DNA of 10,791 nt. It comes from a virus (taxonomy: Duplodnaviria; Heunggongvirae; Uroviricota; Caudoviricetes). Where the stretch lies: IMG/VR virus record IMGVR_UViG_2802429244_000006, positions 1-10,791 of that record; one strand, 5' to 3'. Shown in pieces: positions 1 through 10,791 of the stretch. Every line of letters begins with the position of its first letter. Position 1 is the stretch's first letter. The translations under genes were made by a program, and so were the position numbers. The notes under the pieces were generated by a model. That model was not told the origin of the DNA. It saw only the letters and a program-made list of their open reading frames with translations, and did no database searches.

Positions 1-49
1 GATTTCCCACGCGAATTTTCATCGCTTTCACCATCAGCTCCATGCTCAT
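1..49 (-). CDS. Hypothetical protein, N-terminal 16 codons only (gene runs off the window start)
   Basis: ATG at 49-47 (minus) with GGAGG at 60-56, 6 nt upstream; ATG overlaps the TGA of the upstream gene (ATGA). Translation MSMELMVKAMKIRVGN... Confidence 0.4.
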   Translation of the reverse strand, partial: MSMELMVKAMKIRVGN

Positions 50-270
50 AACACACCTCCCAGGCGTTTAAACATTTTTCCGGACTGAAACACCGCCAGT
101 GGATAACTGATGGTGTAGTTACGCCCCAGTAATTCACACACAACTTTCTGGCTTTCGGTGCTGACCAGGCAAACCCGCAGAACGTGACCGTTGCTGGTGG
201 CGAACCACTGCCCCACACGGGGGCAACGGTTGTATCGGTGATACAGCGAATTCACAACGCGACGAATCAT
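46..270 (-). CDS. Hypothetical phage protein (74 aa)
   Basis: ORF-track ORF; ATG at 270-268 overlaps upstream TGA (ATGA); GGAGG 7 nt upstream (282-278). No recognisable domain. Confidence 0.5.
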   Translation of the reverse strand: MIRRVVNSLYHRYNRCPRVGQWFATSNGHVLRVCLVSTESQKVVCELLGRNYTISYPLAVFQSGKMFKRLGGVL

Positions 271-282
271 GGACGCACCTCC
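265..282. repeat. Copy 1 of an 18-nt gene-junction repeat (aatcatggacgcacctcc); 17/18 identical to 456..473
   Basis: Direct comparison of the two stretches; on the minus strand each copy carries GGAGG, the upstream stop and the downstream ATG. Confidence 0.8.
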
Positions 283-461
283 GCTGTTGTGATGTATTTA
301 ACCGGGCTGCCTTTCATTGCGATGGTTTCACACATCTCCGCGGCTTTACGTTCCGCTGTTTTCCTGGATTTATAGCGGCGGTGCCAGACAGATGTATCCG
401 TGCGAACTGATACATCGTTTCTGTATTCCGTTGTAGAAATAATAATTTCGTAACTAATCAT
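267..461 (-). CDS. Hypothetical phage protein (64 aa from the internal ATG; the ORF track extends to 476)
   Basis: ATG at 461-459 overlaps the TGA of the 493-aa ORF (ATGA) and has GGAGG 8 nt upstream (474-470). The upstream ATG at 476 has no SD. Translation MISYEIIISTTEYRNDV...AEVRP. Confidence 0.45.
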   Translation of the reverse strand: MISYEIIISTTEYRNDVSVRTDTSVWHRRYKSRKTAERKAAEMCETIAMKGSPVKYITTAEVRP

Positions 462-473
462 GGACGCGCCTCC
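456..473. repeat. Copy 2 of the 18-nt gene-junction repeat (aatcatggacgcgcctcc)
   Basis: 17/18 identity with 265..282; same relationship to stop/start codons on the minus strand. Confidence 0.8.
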
Positions 474-1939
474 CATTGATTACGGCGGAAAGCGGTGTGA
501 TTCAGGTGGGTTTCAGCTTCACGGAATGCTTCAATACAGCTCTCGTAGTACCGCATTGTGCGCAGACTTAACCCAAGCTGAAGCATCATCAGGCCATCAA
601 GGGTGATGTAATAACCACGCAGGGAGTCACCATAGATGTGATAAGTGCCCGGTATGAAATTGCGGGTAAAAAAATCGCGCGAGCAGTTCAGATACTCGAT
701 TTTGTCGACGATGTTCTGGTGCATGCGCTTGAAGTGGCAGGCAACATGCAGGGAGAAAATAACGGCCTTGCCGTTGACAACTTCAATTTTCAGGTATGGG
801 GAAGTTGGGACTGTAGCCATGATGGCAGCCTCCTTGAGCAGTGAAAAACTTCCACCACCGGAGCTGCGAAACTCATGGGTGGTGAACTGAACAGGGTTCG
901 CAGTACCGGCGCTCAAGGAAACCGGCGAGCCTTTCGGCTCCCCTGCCCAGCCCACCATAATTCTGGCATGCGCGAGCATGGACGATAAAAAAGACGCTGG
1001 CGCGTCGTATATCGCCTCGAGCAATTCCGGGCTGCGACCCCCGGCACCCGCTTTATAAGGTGCGGAGACAGTGTAACGTCCCGAAATTGCAGAATCAATA
1101 TTTAGGCTTGAAACATTCATATGCTTACTGGTATTTTTACTAACGCAAATGTTCTTGGATGTTACTGGCTTACTTCTCTGTGAAGTTGCCTTTACCAACG
1201 TTGAGCGAGCCGGGTCACTACCCGGCTTTTTTTCACCGCTGCCAACCAATAACCTGAAATAACCCCATTTTCGGGTGATACCAGCGAGTCCCTCGCGGTT
1301 CTGCTTCCTCCATAACCCGATAAAAGCAGCCATAAACGGTTCCACAGCAACAATTGCGCGACGTGACAACAATCCGTCCGGCGTCATGAACTCATGGGTG
1401 TCTGTAGGAATTTGATAGGCGTTCACCAGATTGCGGCATTTATCATCTGACAAACCGGTTTTTGCTTTCAGTTGGCGATATCCGGCATAGCCCTCACGAA
1501 TGGTACCCCTTTTGATTTGCTCAACTGTTTCGGCAACATGGCTGACTTTTTCTTCCACCTGAGTGATCCGTTTCTGCTGACGAACGGCTTCAAGAGCCAT
1601 CGCAGCAACCATTTCGATTTCGCTCATTGGCTTACGGATCTGTTCTTCCAGTTCGCGCCAGCGATCTACCAGGCGAGCAGTGAATTCAGGACAGAGCTGT
1701 GCGACGACAATGATGCTGTCGCGCTTACCTTGTTCTCCTTCAAACAGGTAATGCTCATATTGAACTTTAAAACCTAAGTTATTGATTTTCTCGGAAACAG
1801 CCATTGGCGGTTTCCGGATGATGTTTTTAGCAACCAGGCGTTCGATACTACGTTTAACATCTGAGTGCTGACTACCCACCAGCTCTGCGATCTCAACGCT
1901 GGTCATGGATGCTTTATCGTTAAAAATTGCGGTGTTCAC
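458..1939 (-). CDS. Rha-family phage regulatory protein (antirepressor-like), 493-aa composite ORF; possibly a fusion or read-through of two ancestral genes
   Basis: GTG start at 1939-1937 with AAGGAGG 5 nt upstream. N-terminus (MTSVEIAELVGSQHSDVKRSIERLV...) fits the Phage_pRha pattern. Residues about 230-370 are low-complexity (S/K/G/P-rich) and overlap an AT-rich stretch and a plus-strand terminator. A distinct C-terminal region starts near MATVPTSPYLKIEVVNGK. Confidence 0.65.
   Translation of the reverse strand: MNTAIFNDKASMTSVEIAELVGSQHSDVKRSIERLVAKNIIRKPPMAVSEKINNLGFKVQYEHYLFEGEQGKRDSIIVVAQLCPEFTARLVDRWRELEEQIRKPMSEIEMVAAMALEAVRQQKRITQVEEKVSHVAETVEQIKRGTIREGYAGYRQLKAKTGLSDDKCRNLVNAYQIPTDTHEFMTPDGLLSRRAIVAVEPFMAAFIGLWRKQNREGLAGITRKWGYFRLLVGSGEKKPGSDPARSTLVKATSQRSKPVTSKNICVSKNTSKHMNVSSLNIDSAISGRYTVSAPYKAGAGGRSPELLEAIYDAPASFLSSMLAHARIMVGWAGEPKGSPVSLSAGTANPVQFTTHEFRSSGGGSFSLLKEAAIMATVPTSPYLKIEVVNGKAVIFSLHVACHFKRMHQNIVDKIEYLNCSRDFFTRNFIPGTYHIYGDSLRGYYITLDGLMMLQLGLSLRTMRYYESCIEAFREAETHLNHTAFRRNQWEARP
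1208..1233 (+). terminator. Rho-independent terminator-like hairpin on the plus strand, inside the minus-strand Rha ORF
   Basis: Stem GCCGGGT (1209-1215), loop CACT, stem ACCCGGC (1220-1226), then TTTTTTT (1227-1233). Upstream flank is not A-rich, so it is directional for the plus strand. Confidence 0.5.
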
Positions 1940-1976
1940 TGATACCTCCTTACGGATAAATTATTGGGATCACGGT

Positions 1977-2723
1977 TCAGCACTTCTCAGTTACGCGCTT
2001 TTTCCAGAGCCATGCATCCCTATAAGCAGCCTCGATCCCATGGCATATCCGCATATCCTGAAACCAATGCTTCCGTTCCCATATCTGCCAAGATCGAGGT
2101 TTAATGCGATCGCTGATGCCTGTGATGGAGAACATAGCCAGTACGGGTACTTTCAGGCGTCTTCCTTTCTGGATATGCTTACGCCAGTCATTGCGAAGAT
2201 TTGCCCGCATGCTGAAATAAGCACCAACAGGAAATGCAACAAGAAATGCCGCTACCTGAACAAAAAGGAGTCGCCAGAAATTATGGGAATCATCTGGAGT
2301 GAGTTTGTTCTTCTGTTCAATACCAAACCGCGCCTTGTTACCTTCATCTGGACGGTTAGTGCTTTTGGACTTGGCGCCTGGCTCGGACACTGGCTTGCCA
2401 AAAATCGAGATAAGCGGAAAGAGTTCAATGCCGTCGCTGATGAATTGTTCCTGATCCTTGACGCCTTCCGCGAGGGTTGCCGAGACGGAAAACGGGATAT
2501 GCCACATATATCCAGAGACGATTTCAGAAGACTGCGCCCTCACCTGAGCAGCAGACAAGCACGAAGTTACCAACAAGCCGTAGATAACTTTTTTAACGCA
2601 CTGAAAGCTAGTGAGCTCTATGAAGACAGGCGGATTGTTCCGGTTATCAAAACTCCCGCAGAAATTCTTCCCAGCCTTAACACGCTGATTAAGTTTCTGA
2701 AGCATCGCTAAGCACTGTGACAT
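1977..2723 (-). CDS. Hypothetical protein (248 aa) with one predicted hydrophobic segment
   Basis: ATG at 2723-2721 with GGAGG 6 nt upstream (2734-2730), one nt after the stop of the upstream 75-aa ORF; 37 nt before the Rha gene RBS. A 268-aa ORF on the opposite strand (1905..2711) covers the same DNA, so the coding strand is not certain. Confidence 0.5.
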   Translation of the reverse strand: MSQCLAMLQKLNQRVKAGKNFCGSFDNRNNPPVFIELTSFQCVKKVIYGLLVTSCLSAAQVRAQSSEIVSGYMWHIPFSVSATLAEGVKDQEQFISDGIELFPLISIFGKPVSEPGAKSKSTNRPDEGNKARFGIEQKNKLTPDDSHNFWRLLFVQVAAFLVAFPVGAYFSMRANLRNDWRKHIQKGRRLKVPVLAMFSITGISDRIKPRSWQIWERKHWFQDMRICHGIEAAYRDAWLWKKRVTEKC

Positions 2724-2724
2724 A

Positions 2725-2952
2725 TCACACCTCCGATTGCTTACCTTGCCCCTCTTCTGTGTGCGCTAAATCAGGATGGATATACGGGATACTTGGATCC
2801 AGATGGCAGAGAATAGCTACGTCCTCTGGAACACCTCTCGTTTTCCACTTTCCAACACCTTGACTGCCACGAGGCTTTCCTTTCTTTGGGAATCTGCGGC
2901 CAATAGCGGCATTGGTTTTAAATTGAGTTTTTAATATTTCATAAAGGGTCAT
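2725..2952 (-). CDS. Hypothetical small basic protein (75 aa) in the cro-equivalent position
   Basis: First ORF leftward of the divergent region next to the CI-like gene. Weak SD. No obvious helix-turn-helix. Lys/Arg-rich centre (GRRFPKKGKPRGSQGVGKWKTRG). Confidence 0.3.
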   Translation of the reverse strand: MTLYEILKTQFKTNAAIGRRFPKKGKPRGSQGVGKWKTRGVPEDVAILCHLDPSIPYIHPDLAHTEEGQGKQSEV

Positions 2953-3063
2953 TCTTTAGTCTCACACCGGATACTCTGTTATCCAAGAATGTTAAACGCG
3001 AGAATCCAAAGTATCAAGAGATTCTGTTACTTTAGTATCAGCAGCCATGAAAGGAGAAGAAAA
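2953..3063. promoter_or_regulatory. Divergent operator/promoter region (OR-like) between the cro-position gene and the CI-like repressor
   Basis: 111-bp gap between divergent genes. Candidate leftward sigma-70 promoter on the minus strand: TTGATA (3017-3012), 17-nt spacer, TAACAT (2994-2989). GTATCA motifs at 3011-3016 and 3035-3040; the 10-mer aaagtatcaa (3008-3017) recurs at 3747-3756. Confidence 0.4.
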
Positions 3064-3720
3064 ATGAAATCTTTAGGTGAACGCCTCATCAACGCACGAC
3101 AAAAAGCTGGGTTAACGCAAGATGCGTTGGCTAAAAAAGCAGGGGTCACCAGAGTTGCAATCAGTAAAGCCGAGCAAGGCCTTACAAAAAGTTTCAACGG
3201 TGACACCCTTTTTAAAGTCGCAGCTGCACTGCAGTGTTCACCGCAGTGGCTTCAGAGCGGAGATGAAAAAGATAAGCATTGGGAAAATAATGTTAAGAGC
3301 TGCCCACAGAGAGACACAGCACACTCTTACCCTGTAATTAACTGGGTTCAGGCAGGATTATTCGCAACTGCTGGTGATGACTACAACATGTATGATCAGG
3401 ATAACTGGAGGCATTCTGTAAAATACGCTGGTGAGAGGGGGTTCTGGCTGGAAGTGCACGGAGACTCAATGACTTCGCCCGTAGGAATAACATTTCCTGA
3501 AGGAATGTCGATCCTTGTCAACCCAGATAAAGAAGTTTTTTCAGGGTGTTACGTCATCGCCAGAAAAAAATCCACCAATGAAGCAACATTCAAAAAATAT
3601 ATTTCTGAAATGGGAAAGGCGTTTCTAAAGCCCCTTAATCCACAATATCCAATCATAGAAATGGACAATGATTGCGAAATAGTAGGTGTTGTAGTTGATG
3701 CCAGGTGGGATATTTTCTGA
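3064..3720 (+). CDS. cI: Lambda-CI-like repressor (N-terminal XRE-type HTH, C-terminal LexA/S24-like autoproteolytic domain), 218 aa
   Basis: ATG 3064 with AGGAG 7 nt upstream. HTH: LINARQKAGLTQDALAKKAGVTRVAISKAEQG. C-terminal GDSM (catalytic Ser), FKK (Lys) and LNPQYP closely resemble the lambda CI C-terminal domain. Candidate Ala-Gly cleavage sites in VQAGLFATAGDD. The ORF-track start at 2989 lacks an RBS. Confidence 0.9.
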   Translation: MKSLGERLINARQKAGLTQDALAKKAGVTRVAISKAEQGLTKSFNGDTLFKVAAALQCSPQWLQSGDEKDKHWENNVKSCPQRDTAHSYPVINWVQAGLFATAGDDYNMYDQDNWRHSVKYAGERGFWLEVHGDSMTSPVGITFPEGMSILVNPDKEVFSGCYVIARKKSTNEATFKKYISEMGKAFLKPLNPQYPIIEMDNDCEIVGVVVDARWDIF

Positions 3721-3823
3721 CCAGACTCAAAACACAAAAAGAAACAAAAGTATCAAAAATCACTTGCCACACCTTGATACCTTAGTTACCATAAAACAAA
3801 GTTCGTAACTGAGGTATCATCTC
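3721..3823 (+). promoter_or_regulatory. OL/pL-like operator-promoter region with an inverted repeat GTATCAA-N17-TTGATAC (3750..3780)
   Basis: Inverted repeat arms at 3750-3756 and 3774-3780. Candidate promoter TTGCCA (3764-3769), 17-nt spacer, TACCAT (3787-3792). Shares the aaagtatcaa 10-mer with the OR-like region. Confidence 0.4.
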
Positions 3824-4240
3824 ATGATCAATAAAGCTACAACTCTTGACTGTCTTGAAGAACTGAAAAACCTCGGCAGTCTCATTACACTAATAGCCAA
3901 AGCAACGCCAGATGCTACGCTCTCTGGCGATATCGAGTCATGCGCAGGACTGGCATGGGATATGACAAATAGCATATCCAGAAAGCTATCGTCAGCAATG
4001 CTTTTACAGAACAAAAATTCTGCAATCAACAACCGTCTTCGCACCCAACGCGAAGCCTGCGGCTTAACAACCGCCGAACTCGCCAGGCTGCTCGATCTCG
4101 ATGAAGAAATTATCATCCAGTGGGAGAGCGGAGAGTGTGAACCAACCATCAGTATGCTTATCCCACTGGCAAATATTCTTGGCTGCGATCCGATGTGGCT
4201 GTTAACCGGTAAACCAACAGCAGGAGATACTTGCGCATGA
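3824..4240 (+). CDS. Helix-turn-helix (XRE-family) DNA-binding protein, 138 aa, HTH in the C-terminal half
   Basis: ATG 3824 with GAGG 9 nt upstream. HTH-like segment LRTQREACGLTTAELARLLDLDEEIIIQWESGECEPTISMLIPLANILG. First gene after the CI-like repressor on the same strand. Confidence 0.65.
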   Translation: MINKATTLDCLEELKNLGSLITLIAKATPDATLSGDIESCAGLAWDMTNSISRKLSSAMLLQNKNSAINNRLRTQREACGLTTAELARLLDLDEEIIIQWESGECEPTISMLIPLANILGCDPMWLLTGKPTAGDTCA

Positions 4241-4602
4241 AAAAGTTCAAAAACATAACCGTTCTCCATGTTGATTACTTTGATTATACAAACCCGGACC
4301 TTCTCCCGGAGGTTGTAAAAGCAATAGATGTTGCCGATATAGTGATTAGAGGAAAGAGAATTGTCAAAAACAGGCTCGCATGCACTTCAGGAGCAATGAC
4401 AGAAACAACCTCACAGCAAGATAATTACGAAGGCATTTGTCTGGAGCCTGATTCATTTGCGGTAAATGTTTATCATTTATTGCATGCAACACAGGTATTA
4501 CATATGTCCAGTAATCACGAAACGAAAATACTCGGCAGCGAAATTCTGAATTTTGCATGTGAGTATGCAAAAGCTGCTGCCGAAAAAGAATTAGCGCAAT
4601 AA
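4237..4602 (+). CDS. Hypothetical protein (121 aa), translationally coupled to the upstream HTH gene
   Basis: ATG 4237 overlaps the upstream TGA (ATGA); AGGAG 10 nt upstream. No recognisable domain. AT-rich codon usage. Confidence 0.55.
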   Translation: MKKFKNITVLHVDYFDYTNPDLLPEVVKAIDVADIVIRGKRIVKNRLACTSGAMTETTSQQDNYEGICLEPDSFAVNVYHLLHATQVLHMSSNHETKILGSEILNFACEYAKAAAEKELAQ

Positions 4603-4800
4603 CAACAAATATGCTCTGAACGTTTATTACGGTTTTATCGCCGGGGATTGTTACAACCTTTATTCACAGATGGAACTCAGTTATGACTTTCCTGAAAAAT
4701 AAGGCATCGTATAAAACTGCCTGCCTCATTGCACAACATGGAGATTCTTATCTTCATATAGCCAACCTGTATTTGCGCAAAGCATATGGGAGATAAATAA

Positions 4801-4989
4801 ATGAAAGAAAAACAACAGAACATAACACATAAAAAAGTAAGAGTGTTGCTAACCATTGAAAATGGTGAAGTAATTTACTCAAAACATCTGTTGGATAATG
4901 AATTCGTTGGCTGCATGGATACATTTCTGTGGATGGCAAAAAGAGCTGGCTACACGATTATTCCACCAGCAAAGGAGCAAACATTATGA
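4801..4989 (+). CDS. Hypothetical small protein (62 aa)
   Basis: ATG 4801 with GGGAG 8 nt upstream; follows a 198-bp AT-rich intergenic region; stop overlaps the next start (ATGA). Confidence 0.5.
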   Translation: MKEKQQNITHKKVRVLLTIENGEVIYSKHLLDNEFVGCMDTFLWMAKRAGYTIIPPAKEQTL

Positions 4990-5567
4990 ATAATTCAGAG
5001 TTCCGACCAGAAGTTACGCCACATGGCATAAAAATTGGCAATACAACCATTGATTATGTTGAGGCCGTACAGCGACTTAATAATGGTGAATACGATTATC
5101 CAAATTCACACGGTTTAAGAATCCTTCAGTGTCTTGCAGAAGCCGATGATGCCAGATTACTGGGAAGATTTTCAGTCGATATGAAAGTTACTCAATGGCG
5201 CTGGCTGTATGTGACAACGTTTATAAATGAAGAAGAAGGCAAGAACGGCACCATTGATATCCCTAACGATAACGGAACTACAGATCGCGCAGTTATTTAT
5301 AAGGGGAAGCATGGTTGCATGAGTATATACCCAGGACCACTTCGCATTGCCCTGCAGAACCATGTCGAATGGGGATTTATTGAAAAATATGGCGAAGCTG
5401 AAGGCATGGGGCGAGTTCTGTTTCTCTATCAAAAAATGCTCATCGCAGATCCTGATAATGGTTTCATTGTCTCTGCTATGGGGCGCGAAGGGCTTGAACT
5501 CCTTCTGGATGAAATGATTCATGATCTGAATACTCATGGTATGCCAGAAGCACCAGTGACACATTAA
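4986..5567 (+). CDS. Hypothetical protein (193 aa)
   Basis: ATG 4986 with AGGAG (4973-4977) 8 nt upstream; ATGA overlap with the preceding ORF. The ORF-track start at 4929 is an upstream extension without an RBS. No recognisable domain. Confidence 0.6.
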   Translation: MNNSEFRPEVTPHGIKIGNTTIDYVEAVQRLNNGEYDYPNSHGLRILQCLAEADDARLLGRFSVDMKVTQWRWLYVTTFINEEEGKNGTIDIPNDNGTTDRAVIYKGKHGCMSIYPGPLRIALQNHVEWGFIEKYGEAEGMGRVLFLYQKMLIADPDNGFIVSAMGREGLELLLDEMIHDLNTHGMPEAPVTH

Positions 5568-5612
5568 ATATTAAGAAGAATATAATTCTTTCGTTTTTTA
5601 CTAACCGTTTAT

Positions 5613-5720
5613 ATGAAAAGCAACCGTGAATTAAACAGAGTAAAACTAATTTTAATCCTTGCCACAGTGCTGATACTAACTGAAATCATTATTCTCTTTA
5701 TTGCGCTGTCAGTCGGTTAA
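5613..5720 (+). CDS. Putative small hydrophobic peptide (35 aa, one predicted transmembrane helix)
   Basis: Not in the ORF track (under 60 aa). ATG 5613 to TAA 5718-5720: MKSNRELNRVKLILILATVLILTEIIILFIALSVG. No SD, so low confidence. Confidence 0.25.
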   Translation: MKSNRELNRVKLILILATVLILTEIIILFIALSVG

Positions 5721-5743
5721 AAATATCGGGATACCACAGACCA

Positions 5744-5932
5744 ATGAGACTGTATTTCACAATAGTAATTTTACTGGCAATTATCGCATGTATTTACGGA
5801 TTACTTGTTCCGTTCCTTATATCCATGAAGGATACGATAGCAGTTATTTCTGGCTTTGCACTGGCGTTTCTGACCCCGCCCTGCATTTATGCCATTTACA
5901 AGGGGCTTTCTTTCACTAAGGATAAAAGATGA
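5744..5932 (+). CDS. Small membrane protein (62 aa, two predicted transmembrane helices)
   Basis: ORF-track ORF; hydrophobic stretches IVILLAIIACIYGLLVPFLI and AVISGFALAFLTPPCIYAIY; stop overlaps the ATG of the SPFH gene (ATGA). Weak or absent SD; alternative in-frame ATG at 5825. Confidence 0.45.
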   Translation: MRLYFTIVILLAIIACIYGLLVPFLISMKDTIAVISGFALAFLTPPCIYAIYKGLSFTKDKR

Positions 5933-6756
5933 AAAAAATTATTTTTGCTTTAGCCATTGTTCTGCCGACTATTGGCCTTGTCGGTTGCGATCGCGTTGAA
6001 CCAGGTAATGTTGGCATCAAGGTAAATAAACTGGGCGACGACAAAGGCGTCGGTGAGGTGGTCGGTGTTGGTCGCTACTGGACTGGCTGGAATACTGAAG
6101 TTTATATCTTCCCCACCTTCAAGCAAATGAAGACCTACGATGAACCGTTCAGTTTCCAGATGAGTGACGGTACAACCATCGGCTATCACATTGGCGTGGC
6201 CTACAAAGTTGATCCATCCAAAGTTACCACGGTGTTTCAGACCTACCGCAAAGGCGTGGATGACATTACAGACACCGACCTGCGCCAGAAGATCGCCGAC
6301 GCACTCAACCGACTGGCCAGCAAAATGACCACTGACAAATTTATCGACGGCGGCAAGTCTGAGCTGCTGGATGAAGCTCTTAAAGACATTCAGGCAGAGA
6401 TGACACCTATCGGTATTCAGGTAATGAGCCTCTCATATGTGGGTAAGCCGGAGTACCCGCCAACCGTTATCGACAGCATTAATGCCAAAGTCACGGCGAA
6501 CCAGAAAACCCTACAACGCGAGCAGGAAGTTAAACAGCGCGAAGCGGAAGCCAACATGTTGCGCGCGGAAGCTGCCGGACAGGCTGATGCGATTCGCACA
6601 AAAGCCCAGGCTGAAGCCGATGCTATTCGTTTACGCGGTGAAGCTCTGCGCCAGAACCCCGGTGTTATGGAGCTGGAAGCCATCAATAAATGGAACGGCA
6701 CACTGCCGCAATACATGACCAGCGGTGCCAATACACCATTTATCCAGGTTAAATAA
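5929..6756 (+). CDS. SPFH/band-7 (prohibitin/HflK/C-like) domain lipoprotein, 275 aa
   Basis: ATG 5929 with AAGGA 6 nt upstream. Signal peptide with lipobox LVGC (Cys20). Central SPFH-like region and C-terminal Ala/Glu-rich coiled coil (QREAEANMLRAEAAGQADAIRTKAQAEADAIRLRGEA) typical of the family. Confidence 0.8.
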   Translation: MKKIIFALAIVLPTIGLVGCDRVEPGNVGIKVNKLGDDKGVGEVVGVGRYWTGWNTEVYIFPTFKQMKTYDEPFSFQMSDGTTIGYHIGVAYKVDPSKVTTVFQTYRKGVDDITDTDLRQKIADALNRLASKMTTDKFIDGGKSELLDEALKDIQAEMTPIGIQVMSLSYVGKPEYPPTVIDSINAKVTANQKTLQREQEVKQREAEANMLRAEAAGQADAIRTKAQAEADAIRLRGEALRQNPGVMELEAINKWNGTLPQYMTSGANTPFIQVK

Positions 6757-6796
6757 CTTATATGCCCGGCAGGCCGCCGGGCTAAGGGAAAAGCAG

Positions 6797-7156
6797 ATGA
6801 ACACCCATAATGCCCAACCGCAAATAATGAACTATGACCCGAATCTGACGTCATGCGGACGCATGGCAAAACAAACCGTTCGATTAACTTTCGGGTTATG
6901 GGAATACCGCGAAACATTCGAAGTTACTGTCGGCGGCAATCTGACCGGGCTGGATGTTATCAGTTGCGCTATTGAAAGCCTGTACGCAACGCTGCTTTAT
7001 GAAGAAGTCGAGGATGAGCGCGATATCATAGCCACCATTAATATCGGCGGACTGGAATGCAAGGATGAAAACCTGTCCGGAGAGCTCTGGCTTGCCGGGA
7101 TGCTTATCTCAGCAGAAATTATCAGTATTGAACCCGCAACAAACATACGGCTCTGA
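6797..7156 (+). CDS. Hypothetical protein (119 aa)
   Basis: ATG 6797 with AAGGGA 7 nt upstream; in frame with the longer ORF-track ORF 6725..7156, whose start would overlap the SPFH gene. No recognisable domain. Confidence 0.5.
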   Translation: MNTHNAQPQIMNYDPNLTSCGRMAKQTVRLTFGLWEYRETFEVTVGGNLTGLDVISCAIESLYATLLYEEVEDERDIIATINIGGLECKDENLSGELWLAGMLISAEIISIEPATNIRL

Positions 7157-7187
7157 AGTTCTCACTATTCAGAGAGCAGGAGAAAAA

Positions 7188-7430
7188 ATGTTCGCTTTGA
7201 TTAATCAGGGACAGCTGTATACCGACAGTGCCGGTTACCCGGTAAAAATTATTCGCTGCATAAATAACACTGTGTTGTACAGAAGAATGGATGGGCGAAC
7301 ACAGTCGGTAAAAATAAACGATTTTAATGAACTGTTTGAACGACTCGATCACCAGGAATACCGACAAATTCTGGCAGAAACAGAACAGGAAACTCATCTG
7401 AAAAAATTACGAGCCATGAAAAGGAAGTAA
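7188..7430 (+). CDS. Hypothetical small phage protein (80 aa)
   Basis: ATG 7188 with AGGAG 5 nt upstream; in frame within ORF-track ORF 7065..7430. Translation MFALINQGQLYTDSAGYPVKIIRCINNTVLYRRMDGRTQ... Confidence 0.55.
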   Translation: MFALINQGQLYTDSAGYPVKIIRCINNTVLYRRMDGRTQSVKINDFNELFERLDHQEYRQILAETEQETHLKKLRAMKRK

Positions 7431-7433
7431 AGA

Positions 7434-7580
7434 ATGAATAAAGCGTTTGAACTATGGGTACGCCAGCGTTACGGCAATCGCTATGACCTGACGCGAGATG
7501 TTGACGGTTTCTACTGTCGTGAAATTGTGAAACGAATGTTTGAAGTGTGGTGCCACTGCCGTGGGCTGAATGTTGTATGA
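7434..7580 (+). CDS. Hypothetical small protein (48 aa, Cys-containing)
   Basis: Not in the ORF track. ATG 7434 with AAGGAAG 6 nt upstream. Translation MNKAFELWVRQRYGNRYDLTRDVDGFYCREIVKRMFEVWCHCRGLNVV. Confidence 0.4.
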   Translation: MNKAFELWVRQRYGNRYDLTRDVDGFYCREIVKRMFEVWCHCRGLNVV

Positions 7581-7588
7581 GGTGAACT

Positions 7589-7798
7589 GTGGGGCTGGAT
7601 TGCGTACCTATATCAACCTACTGCCGCAACGCAGGAGAAACGGTTGATGCCGTTAACAAACGGATACAAAGAGGAATATGGAAAGAAGGGGTACATGTAT
7701 TAAAAGTCGACGGAGTTAAAGAACGTTGGGTCGACTTAATGGAGATTACAAAATGGGCAAGAAAGAACAAGGATCACTATCTCTCCCTAGAGGAGTAA
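7589..7798 (+). CDS. xis: Excisionase-like DNA-binding protein (69 aa)
   Basis: GTG start 7589 with GAGGTG just upstream; sits immediately 5' of the integrase and overlaps it by 46 nt, as xis does in lambdoid phages. Motif KEGVHVLKVDGVKERWVDL is consistent with small winged-helix excisionase-like proteins. Confidence 0.55.
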   Translation: MGLDCVPISTYCRNAGETVDAVNKRIQRGIWKEGVHVLKVDGVKERWVDLMEITKWARKNKDHYLSLEE

Positions 7799-8925
7799 CT
7801 ATTCGCCAGCATAAAACTGGTAGCACTCTGGTTATCACTTTTACATATAAAGGGGTTCTGTGTCGGGAGCCCCTCTCCAGAATGGAAGTAAACGCGCGCG
7901 GTGTGAAGTACGCTGAGCGTCTGCTGGGAGAAATAAAAAATCAGATTATCGATGGTACCTTCGAATATGCAAAATACTTCCCCAACTCCCAAAAGCTGGA
8001 GTTGTTCGGGGGAGTGAAAAAAAACAAAAATATAAAATCTTACCTGGATGAATACCTGATTATCTGCCAGAACCGTAACCTGTCACCATCGACAATTAGA
8101 GGTTATGAAAAATGCCTGTCGGCGCTGTCAGCATTGCATAAATTTCATGTATCAGAACTGACACCTGCAGTACTAAAAAACTGGATCGCCAACAGAAAAA
8201 CAAAACTGAAAACTATCCGCAATAATCTTTCATTCCTGCGCAGCGCCATAGATGAAGCGGTGACCGATGGTTTGTTAACAATAAATCCTGTCACGCTAGT
8301 CAGCGCCAGCCGGTATCACGTATTGGACAACACACCAGGCAGTGATGATTACGAGGTCGATCCTTTTACACCAGCGGAGACGGCAGCAATCTATGACGCC
8401 TGTCATTACCCGGAATGGCGAAATCTGTTTCGCTTTGCCTTTAATACAGGACTGCGCAGCTCAGAATTGTGCGCGTTGCGCTGGACGGATATAGACTTTA
8501 TCGGCAACACCGCGCATGTTCAGACTGCAAGCGTAGTCGGGGTAATCAAAAGCACCAAAACAAAAGCCGGCACCCGCAAAGTGCAACTGAACAGCGAAGC
8601 GCTGGCGGCTCTTCAGGCACAAAAGCCCTACACGGCGCTAAAGAGCGACTTCATATTCAGCGATCCGAAAACTCGCGCTCCTTGGGCAAACGCAGATGCG
8701 ATCCGAAAAAAAGCCTGGGTACCAACCCTTAAAAAAGCTGGTGTACGCTATCGCAATCCGTACCAGACACGCCACACGTTCGCCACTCGGCACATTAGCC
8801 AGGGCGTTAACCTGTTCTGGCTTGCTGGTCAGATGGGGCATAAAGGACCGGAAATGCTGTTCAGACATTACGGCTCTTACCTTGCAGAATACGATGGAAA
8901 AACGGCGATTTCTGCAACCCCGTAA
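7753..8925 (+). CDS. int: Lambda-type tyrosine integrase (site-specific recombinase), 390 aa from ATG 7753
   Basis: ATG 7753 with GGAG 8 nt upstream (ORF track begins at TTG 7726). N-terminal arm-binding-like region resembling lambda Int; C-terminal catalytic motifs (LRSSELCALRW..., RHTFATRHISQG..., GHKGPEMLFRHYGSY) with the conserved Arg/His/Arg/Tyr pattern. Confidence 0.9.
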   Translation: MGKKEQGSLSLPRGVTIRQHKTGSTLVITFTYKGVLCREPLSRMEVNARGVKYAERLLGEIKNQIIDGTFEYAKYFPNSQKLELFGGVKKNKNIKSYLDEYLIICQNRNLSPSTIRGYEKCLSALSALHKFHVSELTPAVLKNWIANRKTKLKTIRNNLSFLRSAIDEAVTDGLLTINPVTLVSASRYHVLDNTPGSDDYEVDPFTPAETAAIYDACHYPEWRNLFRFAFNTGLRSSELCALRWTDIDFIGNTAHVQTASVVGVIKSTKTKAGTRKVQLNSEALAALQAQKPYTALKSDFIFSDPKTRAPWANADAIRKKAWVPTLKKAGVRYRNPYQTRHTFATRHISQGVNLFWLAGQMGHKGPEMLFRHYGSYLAEYDGKTAISATP

Positions 8926-9057
8926 CGGCAAAATATTTCAAAATGTTGTACAGAATCAGGACGTTATCGGGACAACAATATGTACGTAAAATGCACATAA
9001 TTCATTGTTTGAAAAAATAAATCGTTCATATTCAATAAATTGGATTAATCACGATCA

Positions 9058-9084
9058 CGGGTTCAACTCCCGCCAGCTCCACCA
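9058..9084 (+). other. ssrA: 27-nt copy of the 3' end of tmRNA (ssrA): T-arm 3' side plus acceptor 3' strand ending CCA; interpreted as the att core at a prophage/island junction
   Basis: CGGGTTCAACTCCCGCCAGCTCCACCA matches the E. coli tmRNA 3' terminus as I recall it (...GCGGGTTCAACTCCCGCCAGCTCCACCA). Sequence immediately 5' (cacgatca) does not match ssrA, so this is a fragment, not a complete gene. Confidence 0.75.
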
Positions 9085-9118
9085 CTTTTTAGTTGTTTGA
9101 AGTACAATGAAGTCTACT

Positions 9119-9152
9119 AAGCCCGCACAGCACAAGCTCTGCGGGCTTTTTT
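9119..9152 (+). terminator. Rho-independent terminator
   Basis: GC-rich stem AAGCCCGCA / TGCGGGCTT followed by a run of six T (9147-9152); 35 nt downstream of the ssrA-like CCA end. Confidence 0.7.
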
Positions 9153-9249
9153 ACGTCTATTGTCGTCCAGTGAGAATTGCTGAGAACTATCACTTATGGC
9201 ACCCTGAATGGGACCCACTAAGAAGGGTCCAAAAACCGAGGGTCCCAAA

Positions 9250-10479
9250 ATGGCAAAAATCGCTAAGAAGCTCACTGACACTGAAATCAAAAGCACCAAG
9301 CCAGCCGACAAAGAAATCAACTTGTTTGACGGAGATGGTTTGATACTACGAATCGCTCCCCTCTCGAAAGGAGGAAAGAAGAATTGGTATTTCAGGTATG
9401 CAGTGCCAGTCAGTAAAAAAAGAACCAAAATGAGCCTTGGGACATATCCTCACCTTACACTGGCAAGAGCCAGAGCCTTACGAGATGAATACCTTTCCTT
9501 GCTTGCTAATGGCATTGATCCCCAAGTTCATAACAACGATAAAGCTAATGCCTTAAAGAATGCTACTGAACACACTCTCCAAGCCGTGGCAAGGAAATGG
9601 TTGGATGAGAAGGTAAAGACCTCAGGTATCTCACAAGACCATGCAGCAGACATCTGGCGCAGCTTAGAGAGAAATGTCTTTCCTGGCCTGGGTAATGTCC
9701 CTATCAATGAGATCCGACCTAAGCTCTTAAAACAACACCTTGATCCTATTGAGCAACGAGGCGTATTGGAAACTCTACGCCGCATCATTTCACGTCTGAA
9801 TGAAATCTTCCGGTGGGCAGCCACTGAAGAACTTATTGAGTTCAATCCGGCTGACAACCTTGGTCAAAGATTCAGTAAACCAAAAAAGCAAAATATGCCT
9901 GCCCTTCCCCCAAGCGAATTGCCAAGGTTTATGGAATCTTTGACGAATGCGTCAATCCGGCTGGAAACACGTATGCTAATTGAATGGCAATTGTTGACAT
10001 GGGTTCGTCCGGGTGAAGCCGTTCGCGCAAGGTGGTCTGATATTGATACAACCAACAACATTTGGAACATTCCTGCTGATTTTATGAAAATGAAAAAGCC
10101 TCACAAAGTTCCTTTGAGTAAAGAAGCTTTGCACATCCTTGAATTAATGAAATCAATAAGTGGGCATAGAGAATGGGTTTTCCCCAGCATTAAAGCGCCT
10201 CTTAATCATATGCATGAACAAACAGCCAACGCAGCTATTATCCGAATGGGGTTTGGAGGCGAACTTGTAGCTCACGGTATGCGTTCGATTGCAAGAACAG
10301 CGGCAGAGGCGTCTGGTAAGTTCAGAGCTGAAGTTCTTGAGGCAGCACTCGCCCACTCTAAAAAAGATGAAATTATCGCAGCATACAATCGTGCAGAATA
10401 TCTGATAGAACGACAGAGTTTGATGCAATGGTGGAGTGATTACGTTCAAACTCAAAGAGCTAAAGCTATCGCTGCTTGA
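9250..10479 (+). CDS. int: P4-type (IntA-like) tyrosine integrase, 409 aa from ATG 9250
   Basis: ATG 9250 with GAGGG 7 nt upstream. N-terminus MAKIAKKLTDTEIKSTKPADKEINLFDGDGLILRI fits the P4-integrase arm-binding N-terminal pattern. Conserved blocks DIWRSLER, GVLETLRR, KKQNMP, ARWSDID, HGMRSIART, EAALAH, AYNRAEYL, MQWW. The ORF-track start at 9208 is an upstream extension. Confidence 0.9.
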   Translation: MAKIAKKLTDTEIKSTKPADKEINLFDGDGLILRIAPLSKGGKKNWYFRYAVPVSKKRTKMSLGTYPHLTLARARALRDEYLSLLANGIDPQVHNNDKANALKNATEHTLQAVARKWLDEKVKTSGISQDHAADIWRSLERNVFPGLGNVPINEIRPKLLKQHLDPIEQRGVLETLRRIISRLNEIFRWAATEELIEFNPADNLGQRFSKPKKQNMPALPPSELPRFMESLTNASIRLETRMLIEWQLLTWVRPGEAVRARWSDIDTTNNIWNIPADFMKMKKPHKVPLSKEALHILELMKSISGHREWVFPSIKAPLNHMHEQTANAAIIRMGFGGELVAHGMRSIARTAAEASGKFRAEVLEAALAHSKKDEIIAAYNRAEYLIERQSLMQWWSDYVQTQRAKAIAA

Positions 10480-10791
10480 CTGATACAGGGGATTAGCAAG
10501 AAGGATAGGGATAGCCTGGAAAGCCCATATACTGACGAATGCCCCTTAGCTAAAACATTCTCATCGGATTGAAAGCGCACATGTACATAAAACCAGTATA
10601 AAAACATAAGGTTATATAACTAAACTTTGATACGTATGCTTCCATATGTTTTTAGTGTTTGATATGGTGAAAAAAAGATACTGATGTTTTTTTATGCTTT
10701 CATTGCTTGTTTCCTTAGTGGGCTACCATATGGATTTCTTTGAAAAAACTAATGCTGACAAAAATTCAATAGGTTTTACCTATCAAGATTA

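Follow-up and report, generated by a model that had tools for sequence, protein, structure and literature searches.

Probable stacked insertion of a phiP27-like prophage and a P4-type island at one ssrA site

The 10,791-nt stretch of DNA analysed here (the window; positions 1 to 10,791 of viral record IMGVR_UViG_2802429244_000006) carries two integrase genes of different type on the same strand, and between them a 27-nt sequence that corresponds to the 3' end of ssrA, the gene for transfer-messenger RNA (tmRNA). The left integrase gene belongs to a prophage and the right one to an island of the P4/CP4-57 type (Table 1). A gap of 132 bp separates the stop of the left integrase gene (8925) from the 27-nt sequence, and a further 165 bp separate the latter from the ATG of the right integrase gene (9250), close to the 130 bp and about 165 bp given in an initial annotation made from the sequence alone, which had proposed that two unrelated elements are stacked at the same ssrA site. 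Tandem arrays at tDNAs have been documented, with the tmRNA gene as the most enriched target: the incoming element interrupts ssrA and carries a copy of the 3' end that makes the gene whole again, the fragment pushed aside comes to lie at the element's far end, and further insertions build up arrays whose members each possess an integrase and a fragment (PMC4383910). It is very likely that the window records such a case, in which a phiP27-like prophage occupies an ssrA gene that was already adjoined by an older P4-type defence island.

The 27-mer, CGGGTTCAACTCCCGCCAGCTCCACCA, has a single occurrence in the window, on the plus strand at 9058-9084, and was matched in none of 200 dinucleotide-preserving shuffles, even when up to three mismatches were allowed. 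The final 27 nt of ssrA in Escherichia coli G47-1, where the gene is annotated with 363 nt (L001 3001-3027; L numbers denote the fetched loci), are the same sequence, as are those of K-12 ssrA, and the proposed copy of the host tmRNA 3' terminus between the two integrases is therefore exact. ARAGORN detected no tmRNA gene in the window, and the Rfam tmRNA model gave a weak match confined to its 3' end (9039-9084; 14.4 bits, E 0.018), which lies far below the gathering score and was rejected as a sign of an RNA gene. As such, the 27-nt piece is evidently a fragment of ssrA and not a gene.

Four forms of the attachment (att) site were aligned, with phage-free G47-1 representing attB, the free phage LMessi attP, E. 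coli strain numer 3 attL and the window attR. To the left of the 27-mer the window tracks the P arm of LMessi and not ssrA, to the right it is identical to the G47-1 attB, and the attL of strain numer 3 has ssrA on its left and an LMessi-like P' arm on its right. The four sites fit the B-O-B', P-O-P', B-O-P' and P-O-B' pattern of integrative recombination, in which the window takes the place of attR (P-O-B'), and by this alignment positions 9058-9084 are both the core of the prophage attR and the attL-side (proximal) copy of the P4-type island. In the LMessi genome the core lies at L013 2833-2859, flanked by P and P' arms homologous to those of the window attR and the numer 3 attL, and the attP of phage phiES15 is annotated at the same core sequence. 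Phage PhiR12_1, which had no core within 1.5 kb of its integrase gene, was left out of this comparison. The window shares with the attL of the closest complete genome an identity block of 32 bp (9058-9089, the 27 nt followed by CTTTT), and where the downstream DNA differs the attL/attR identity is 27 bp; because the block shrinks in this way, 27 bp is taken as the constant core. Experiments in E. coli K-12 have demonstrated that the related phage PhiNP integrates into a 25-bp site at the 3' end of ssrA (PMC6456863), and this 25-bp site is contained within the window 27-mer. A Logan contig identical to the window (SRR3988073_363; L010) ends at 9087, 3 nt past the 27-mer, a point at which the repeated core would be expected to interrupt assembly.

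The complete ssrA gene anticipated at the far left end of the prophage is present in related complete genomes with the same junction, at a distance of 38-47 kb. In strain numer 3, whose junction region is 96% identical to the window, ARAGORN identified a complete tmRNA gene (tag ANDENYALAA) at the opposite end of the prophage, 46.5 kb left of the junction, and in E94, E92, STEC306-308 and cq9 the attL is annotated as ssrA, 38-43 kb from attR. The intact ssrA at these attL sites has the same orientation as the displaced fragment, and the phage P' arm carries its own hairpin terminator for the restored gene. The properties by which the Islander approach defines an integrated element can thus be recognised: each of the two elements has a tyrosine integrase inside it near one end (PF00589; 7753-8925 and 9250-10479), the displaced fragment has a counterpart in an intact gene of the same orientation at the other end in related genomes, and a free form with the attP fragment between both arms is seen in LMessi. 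At ssrA of E. coli DX6 (L018 2941-2990), a related integrase gene with P arm and core leads directly into the P' arm of another phage from this family, which makes the locus a same-family tandem.

The two integrases are clearly distinct, sharing 26% identity over 182 residues of the catalytic region and having different arm domains. The right integrase has the domain order of the P4/CP4-57 type and reaches the cutoff of NF007246 (439.1 bits, cutoff 434), which bears out its designation as a P4-type integrase, and its arm (N-terminal) domain matches those of CP4-like integrases in the PDB. The left integrase had been called lambda-type, a term which holds for the layout, with xis and int directed towards att and a separate arm-binding domain, but not for the subfamily. 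In place of the PF09003 arm domain and close sequence similarity of the lambda Int subfamily, it has a PF12167 arm domain, and lambda Int structures match it only marginally (E 7e-5, residues 93-247, in the core-binding region), with Tn1549 Int, to which the catalytic motifs R...HxxR...H...Y can be aligned, scoring better. The left integrase shares 86-89% identity with those of phi467, LMessi, PhiR12 and Cronobacter phage phiES15 and 68% with that of PhiNP from Citrobacter rodentium, and from these identities we assign it to the PhiNP/phiES15/LMessi family, in which PhiNP and phiES15 are its nearest studied relatives.

Each element is found without the other. The exact left integrase protein occurs without the island, followed directly by the chromosomal csiD/glaH region (L005, L008, L011), beside three other P4-type islands with different cargo (such as those of L006 and L009), and beside a true P4-like satellite that encodes psu and ogr/delta (L007, L019); conversely, L001/L020 have the island but no phage. 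Window positions 9058-9600 are 100% identical to at least four listed genomes in which intact ssrA directly abuts the same integrase gene, and 99.8% identical to two more. Among 5,426 complete E. coli genomes, 1,338 matched the query across the junction, most of these matches covering the P4-type integrase part only and the matches listed adjoining ssrA; 131 genomes carry the phage xis-int-attR module, and eight carry this particular pair of phage and island. The members of the array are thus independent elsewhere, and each has its own integrase and its own fragment (9058-9084, and a damaged one at L004 18868-18876). The view that two unrelated elements are stacked at one ssrA site is in this respect upheld.

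It might be argued from a window that holds only a fragment of ssrA that the 27-mer is a chance match, or the remnant of a deletion that destroyed a copy of the gene without site-specific recombination. The result of the shuffles is not consistent with chance, the left breakpoint coincides in all relatives with the exact point at which attP and attB diverge, and E. coli has a single ssrA gene, which is intact at the attL of related genomes; such an origin is already refuted by the four-way att alignment, and we give it virtually no credence. Just as improbable is a single composite element that has both integrases and is mobile as a whole. The GenBank record of phage phi467 does span both integrases, and the eight complete genomes share the same junction, but there are genomes with the phage integrase and P arm and no island, and others with the island and no phage, and free LMessi has the P-O-P' structure without island sequence. 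The core of phi467 lies between its two integrases, so that this record is a deposit of a prophage region that continues past attR, and for this reason phi467 was rejected as a phage carrying both genes.

Stacked insertion of the two elements would have proceeded as follows. The older P4/CP4-57-type island, of about 7.5 kb, would have integrated into ssrA first, bringing with it the trailer and terminator at 9085-9154 and the integrase gene at 9250-10479. Later, the integrase of the phiP27-like phage, whose prophage would measure about 40-47 kb, would have recombined attP, with its 27-nt copy of ssrA, with the 3' end of the gene, the crossover probably falling at or near the T-loop part of the 27-mer. 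This would leave ssrA complete at the distant left end of the prophage, with the phage supplying an identical 3' end and its own terminator, and intact ssrA joined to the P' arm (CTTTTGAYAGGAC...) is predicted there, about 40-47 kb left of 9058. The original 3' end would have been displaced to 9058-9084, still joined to the island that formerly lay downstream of the gene. We infer that the island came first and the phage second because this is the more parsimonious order and because of the population counts (1,338 versus 131). In the reversed order, a P4-type island would have entered the displaced 27-nt fragment at the attR of a resident prophage. What a displaced fragment retains is the extreme 3' part of the gene, and it is in this part that the identity block of P4-type islands lies; the attR copy of K-12 (TCCGCCAGCCCACCA) spans only the last 15-17 nt, so that the 27-mer might suffice as a target, and the tandem in DX6 is a precedent within one family. 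Against this order stands the complete identity of 9058-9600 to genomes in which ssrA is joined to the same island and the phage is absent, and the occurrence of the identical Int protein in at least five downstream contexts fits a recently mobile phage better than repeated capture of islands. The attB context upstream of the fragment would, moreover, have been the phage P arm and not ssrA, and we regard the reversed order as improbable.

Some points weigh against an insertion of the phage next to an older island as set out above. The source contig of the window (JABWNY020000046.1 of assembly GCA_013369085.2; L004), to which the window is 100% identical over its 10,791 bases, measures 30 kb and ends short of the left end of the prophage, and the complete ssrA and attL are thus taken from close relatives only. 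The order of arrival rests on the parsimony and population counts just given, and present activity of either integrase is presumptive. Precise excision of the island is doubtful, its distal core copy being reduced to CCCCAGC-----CA.

Table 1. Features at the junction of prophage and island (window coordinates)
Feature	Position	Strand	Basis
Excisionase gene, 69 aa; overlaps the start of int	7589..7798	+	PHROG 2917, E 1.5e-40
Tyrosine integrase gene of the left prophage, 390 aa from ATG 7753	7753..8925	+	PF12167 Arm-DNA-bind_2, PF00589
P arm of the prophage attR, AT-rich, GC about 0.28-0.39	8926..9057	+	Aligns to the attP P arm of LMessi and relatives, not to ssrA
Candidate arm-type Int sites, ATGTAC (8980-8985) and ATGCAC (8991-8996), 11 bp apart, in GACAACAATATGTACGTAAAATGCAC	8971..8996	+	Conservation, repetition
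Integration host factor (IHF)-like site ATTCAATAAATTG (TTCAA-N4-TTR), about 16 bp from the core	9030..9042	+	Kept in all 7 aligned P arms
Displaced ssrA 3' end: 3' part of T-arm, 3' strand of acceptor, CCA	9058..9084	+	ssrA identity, att alignment
ssrA trailer and rho-independent terminator from the island, hairpin 9119-9148 followed by a T run	9085..9154	+	Repeats, fold
GGGWCC(C) repeats TGGGACCC, AGGGTCCAAAAA, AGGGTCCCAAAA, just before the start of int	9209..9250	+	Direct repeat D1, inverted repeat I8
CP4-57/P4-type integrase gene, 409 aa	9250..10479	+	PF13356 Arm-DNA-bind_3, PF22022 Phage_int_M, PF00589

The AT-rich character of the segment between the left integrase gene and the core, to which the initial annotation had drawn attention as a likely location of arm-type Int binding sites, was confirmed (GC 0.28 in 8950-9049, as against about 0.5 in the flanks), and the sites themselves, although still a prediction, now correspond to a conserved and repeated motif. 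In a reconstructed attP, 22 of the 26 positions of GACAACAATATGTACGTAAAATGCAC agree with a P'-arm block of the related attL, a score that none of 2000 shuffles reached. It is the best conserved block of the P arm across the arms of seven relatives, including Cronobacter phiES15 and phi467, and LMessi has the same tandem ATGYAC pair in both of its arms. The motif TTCAA-N4-TT(G/A) is conserved in 7 of 7 aligned P arms, and ATTCAATAAATTG differs by one mismatch from the IHF consensus WATCAANNNNTTR. Since the motifs are conserved and repeated and the integrase has an arm-binding domain, it is plausible that the ATGYAC pair represents arm-type Int sites and TTCAA-N4-TTR an IHF site. The P' arm of this phage family also aligns to the native ssrA trailer and terminator of island-free strains (L005 11333-11490), which is found again at the distal flanks of CP4-57 (L012 24587-24740) and of the present island (L004 18877-19030). 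The alignment shows 77% identity over the aligned positions, with a score of 60 compared with 16 +/- 6 (maximum 43) for shuffles, and the native trailer has the appearance of a remnant, a terminator left by an earlier prophage of this family.

On the island side of the core, positions 9085-9154 match, at 100% identity, the DNA downstream of intact ssrA in genomes that lack the phage. They contain an inverted repeat (9119-9131/9136-9148, 92% complementary) that was matched as terminator-like and folds with -22.7 kcal/mol (z -3.05), and the hairpin at 9119-9148 ends ssrA transcripts in phage-free strains. The GGGWCC(C) repeats immediately before the integrase gene are candidate Int arm or operator sites of the island; in CP4-57 of K-12 an analogous triplet of AGGCCCA/TGGGCCT, different in sequence, has the same position. 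A promoter scan of 8800-9400 found none, and as such no promoter can be named for the P4-type int. The Rfam model of the small RNA IsrM (RF02763, 329 nt) matched 9075-9152 with 56.6 bits, compared with a gathering score of 376, and the match comprises only about the first 20 and the last 57 positions of the model, with 253 nt of its middle absent. An IsrM gene in the window was rejected for these reasons, the match stemming from the trailer of the island. The match does suggest that IsrM itself begins in a fragment of the ssrA 3' end, has an insert of 253 nt and finishes at an ssrA terminator contributed by an island. The Salmonella gene STM2763 presumably encodes a P4-type integrase. In Salmonella, IsrM is located between STM2762 and STM2763 (PMC2330248).

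The island extends past the end of the window and measures about 7.5 kb in the source contig, where its cargo (L004 12942-18306) encodes a 399-aa protein, the ABC-3C middle component MC3, an LmuB_C-domain protein and a DUF6119 protein. This cargo looks defence-related, and other copies of the same P4-type integrase gene are accompanied by Gabija-like UvrD/OLD genes (G47-1) or by a sensor kinase/response-regulator pair. A search of the window and all fetched loci with up to 6 mismatches to the 27-mer, or up to 3 to its last 17 nt, gave no third good copy of the core, and generic direct-repeat finding over the island, which returned chance AT-rich repeats only, was discarded. Anchoring on the conserved chromosomal flank ATCATGATTRGACGG exposed a decayed distal copy at L004 18868-18876, reading CCCCAGC-----CA and then ATCATGATTAGACGG. 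A further core copy at the right end of the P4-type element, as had been expected, is thus present but damaged. The idea that each element had duplicated the att core is therefore correct historically, while today the middle copy is common to both elements and the distal copy has decayed. P4-integrase islands in ssrA with such damage have been tabulated, and in K-12 the damage inactivates tmRNA upon excision of CP4-57 (PMC10107115, Table 1).

To the left of the integration module, the window matches phage phiP27 with 97% identity across 67% of the length of this left part, which encodes a cI-like repressor, Rha and Ash proteins and an SPFH-domain protein. The prophage is evidently a mosaic of a phiP27-type genome and a PhiNP-type integration module, as judged by comparison with these phages, because its early region is phiP27-like to this degree but the phiP27 record has no match to the int-att end of the window. 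The reading frame of the left integrase is open from TTG 7726. Two RNA families scored above their gathering thresholds on the minus strand, the C4 antisense RNA at 875-962 (84.4 bits) and isrK at 987-1063 (56.4 bits). Both lie inside an open reading frame (ORF) of 493 aa (458-1939, minus strand) with Rha and Ash Pfam domains; the stretch that encodes the Ash domain coincides with the C4 and isrK structures, and relatives have Rha and Ash as separate genes. In strain numer 3 the closely related prophage at ssrA has annotations for the A and B chains of heat-labile enterotoxin IIA (L002 777-1922) near the lysis module. The phi467 record (LN997803, L016 8028-12119) extends past attR into a CP4-57-type island, its left integrase is split into two ORFs with an extra ORF between int and the core, and its core is 3 nt short (CCACTTTTT versus CCACCACTTTTT).

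Arrangements of this kind are already known, and annotated RefSeq genomes contain the same junction. The window shows exactly the pattern of documented ssrA and tDNA arrays, with nothing that differs in kind. With PhiNP, phiES15, LMessi, phi467 and PhiR12 the prophage shares the integrase family, the xis gene upstream and an attP core that corresponds to the ssrA 3' end, and it differs from PhiNP-type phages in that the rest of the prophage is phiP27-like. The island resembles the cryptic prophage CP4-57 of K-12, whose integrase, IntA, is of a well-studied type, in having the integrase gene directly after ssrA sequence, in the same direction and with the same domains, in supplying the ssrA terminator, and in having a damaged distal copy, which in CP4-57 reads TCCGCCAGC-CCACCA and is annotated psaA. 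In contrast to CP4-57, the island has another left-arm sequence and other cargo, its distal copy is more decayed, and it is separated from the working ssrA by the prophage. The xis-int order, the direction of int towards attP, a probably heterobivalent integrase with a separate arm-binding domain and an AT-rich arm with repeats and a likely IHF site are all reminiscent of lambda. Lambda differs in having a PF09003 arm domain where PF12167 is found here, and in targeting an intergenic attB and not the tmRNA gene.

The window provides a clean worked example of a tmRNA gene that collects mobile elements in series, and gives exact boundaries for annotation of the right end of the prophage (9084/9089) and of the adjacent defence island. 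Among the few practical uses, integration by this phage family, relatives of which carry heat-labile enterotoxin II (LT-II) and Shiga toxin (Stx), might be predicted with the help of the att core and the candidate arm sites. Only one aspect is mildly new: the prophage separates the working ssrA from an island that would otherwise leave a scar in the gene on excision. The layout also bears on whether excision of the island can still switch off tmRNA. We tentatively raise the possibility, which we consider somewhat unlikely, that the prophage uncouples the tmRNA gene from the "rescue switch" that has been described for CP4-57-type islands, in which excision inactivates tmRNA. The phage would supply the working ssrA 3' end, and the island would be joined only to the displaced, non-functional fragment. 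A related reading, put forward with the same reserve, is that the native ssrA trailer of island-free E. coli, and with it the native terminator, is a relic P' arm of this phage family. If the uncoupling were real, loss of just the island would leave its scar in the spare fragment only, while excision of the whole array, or of the phage and then the island, would still inactivate tmRNA.

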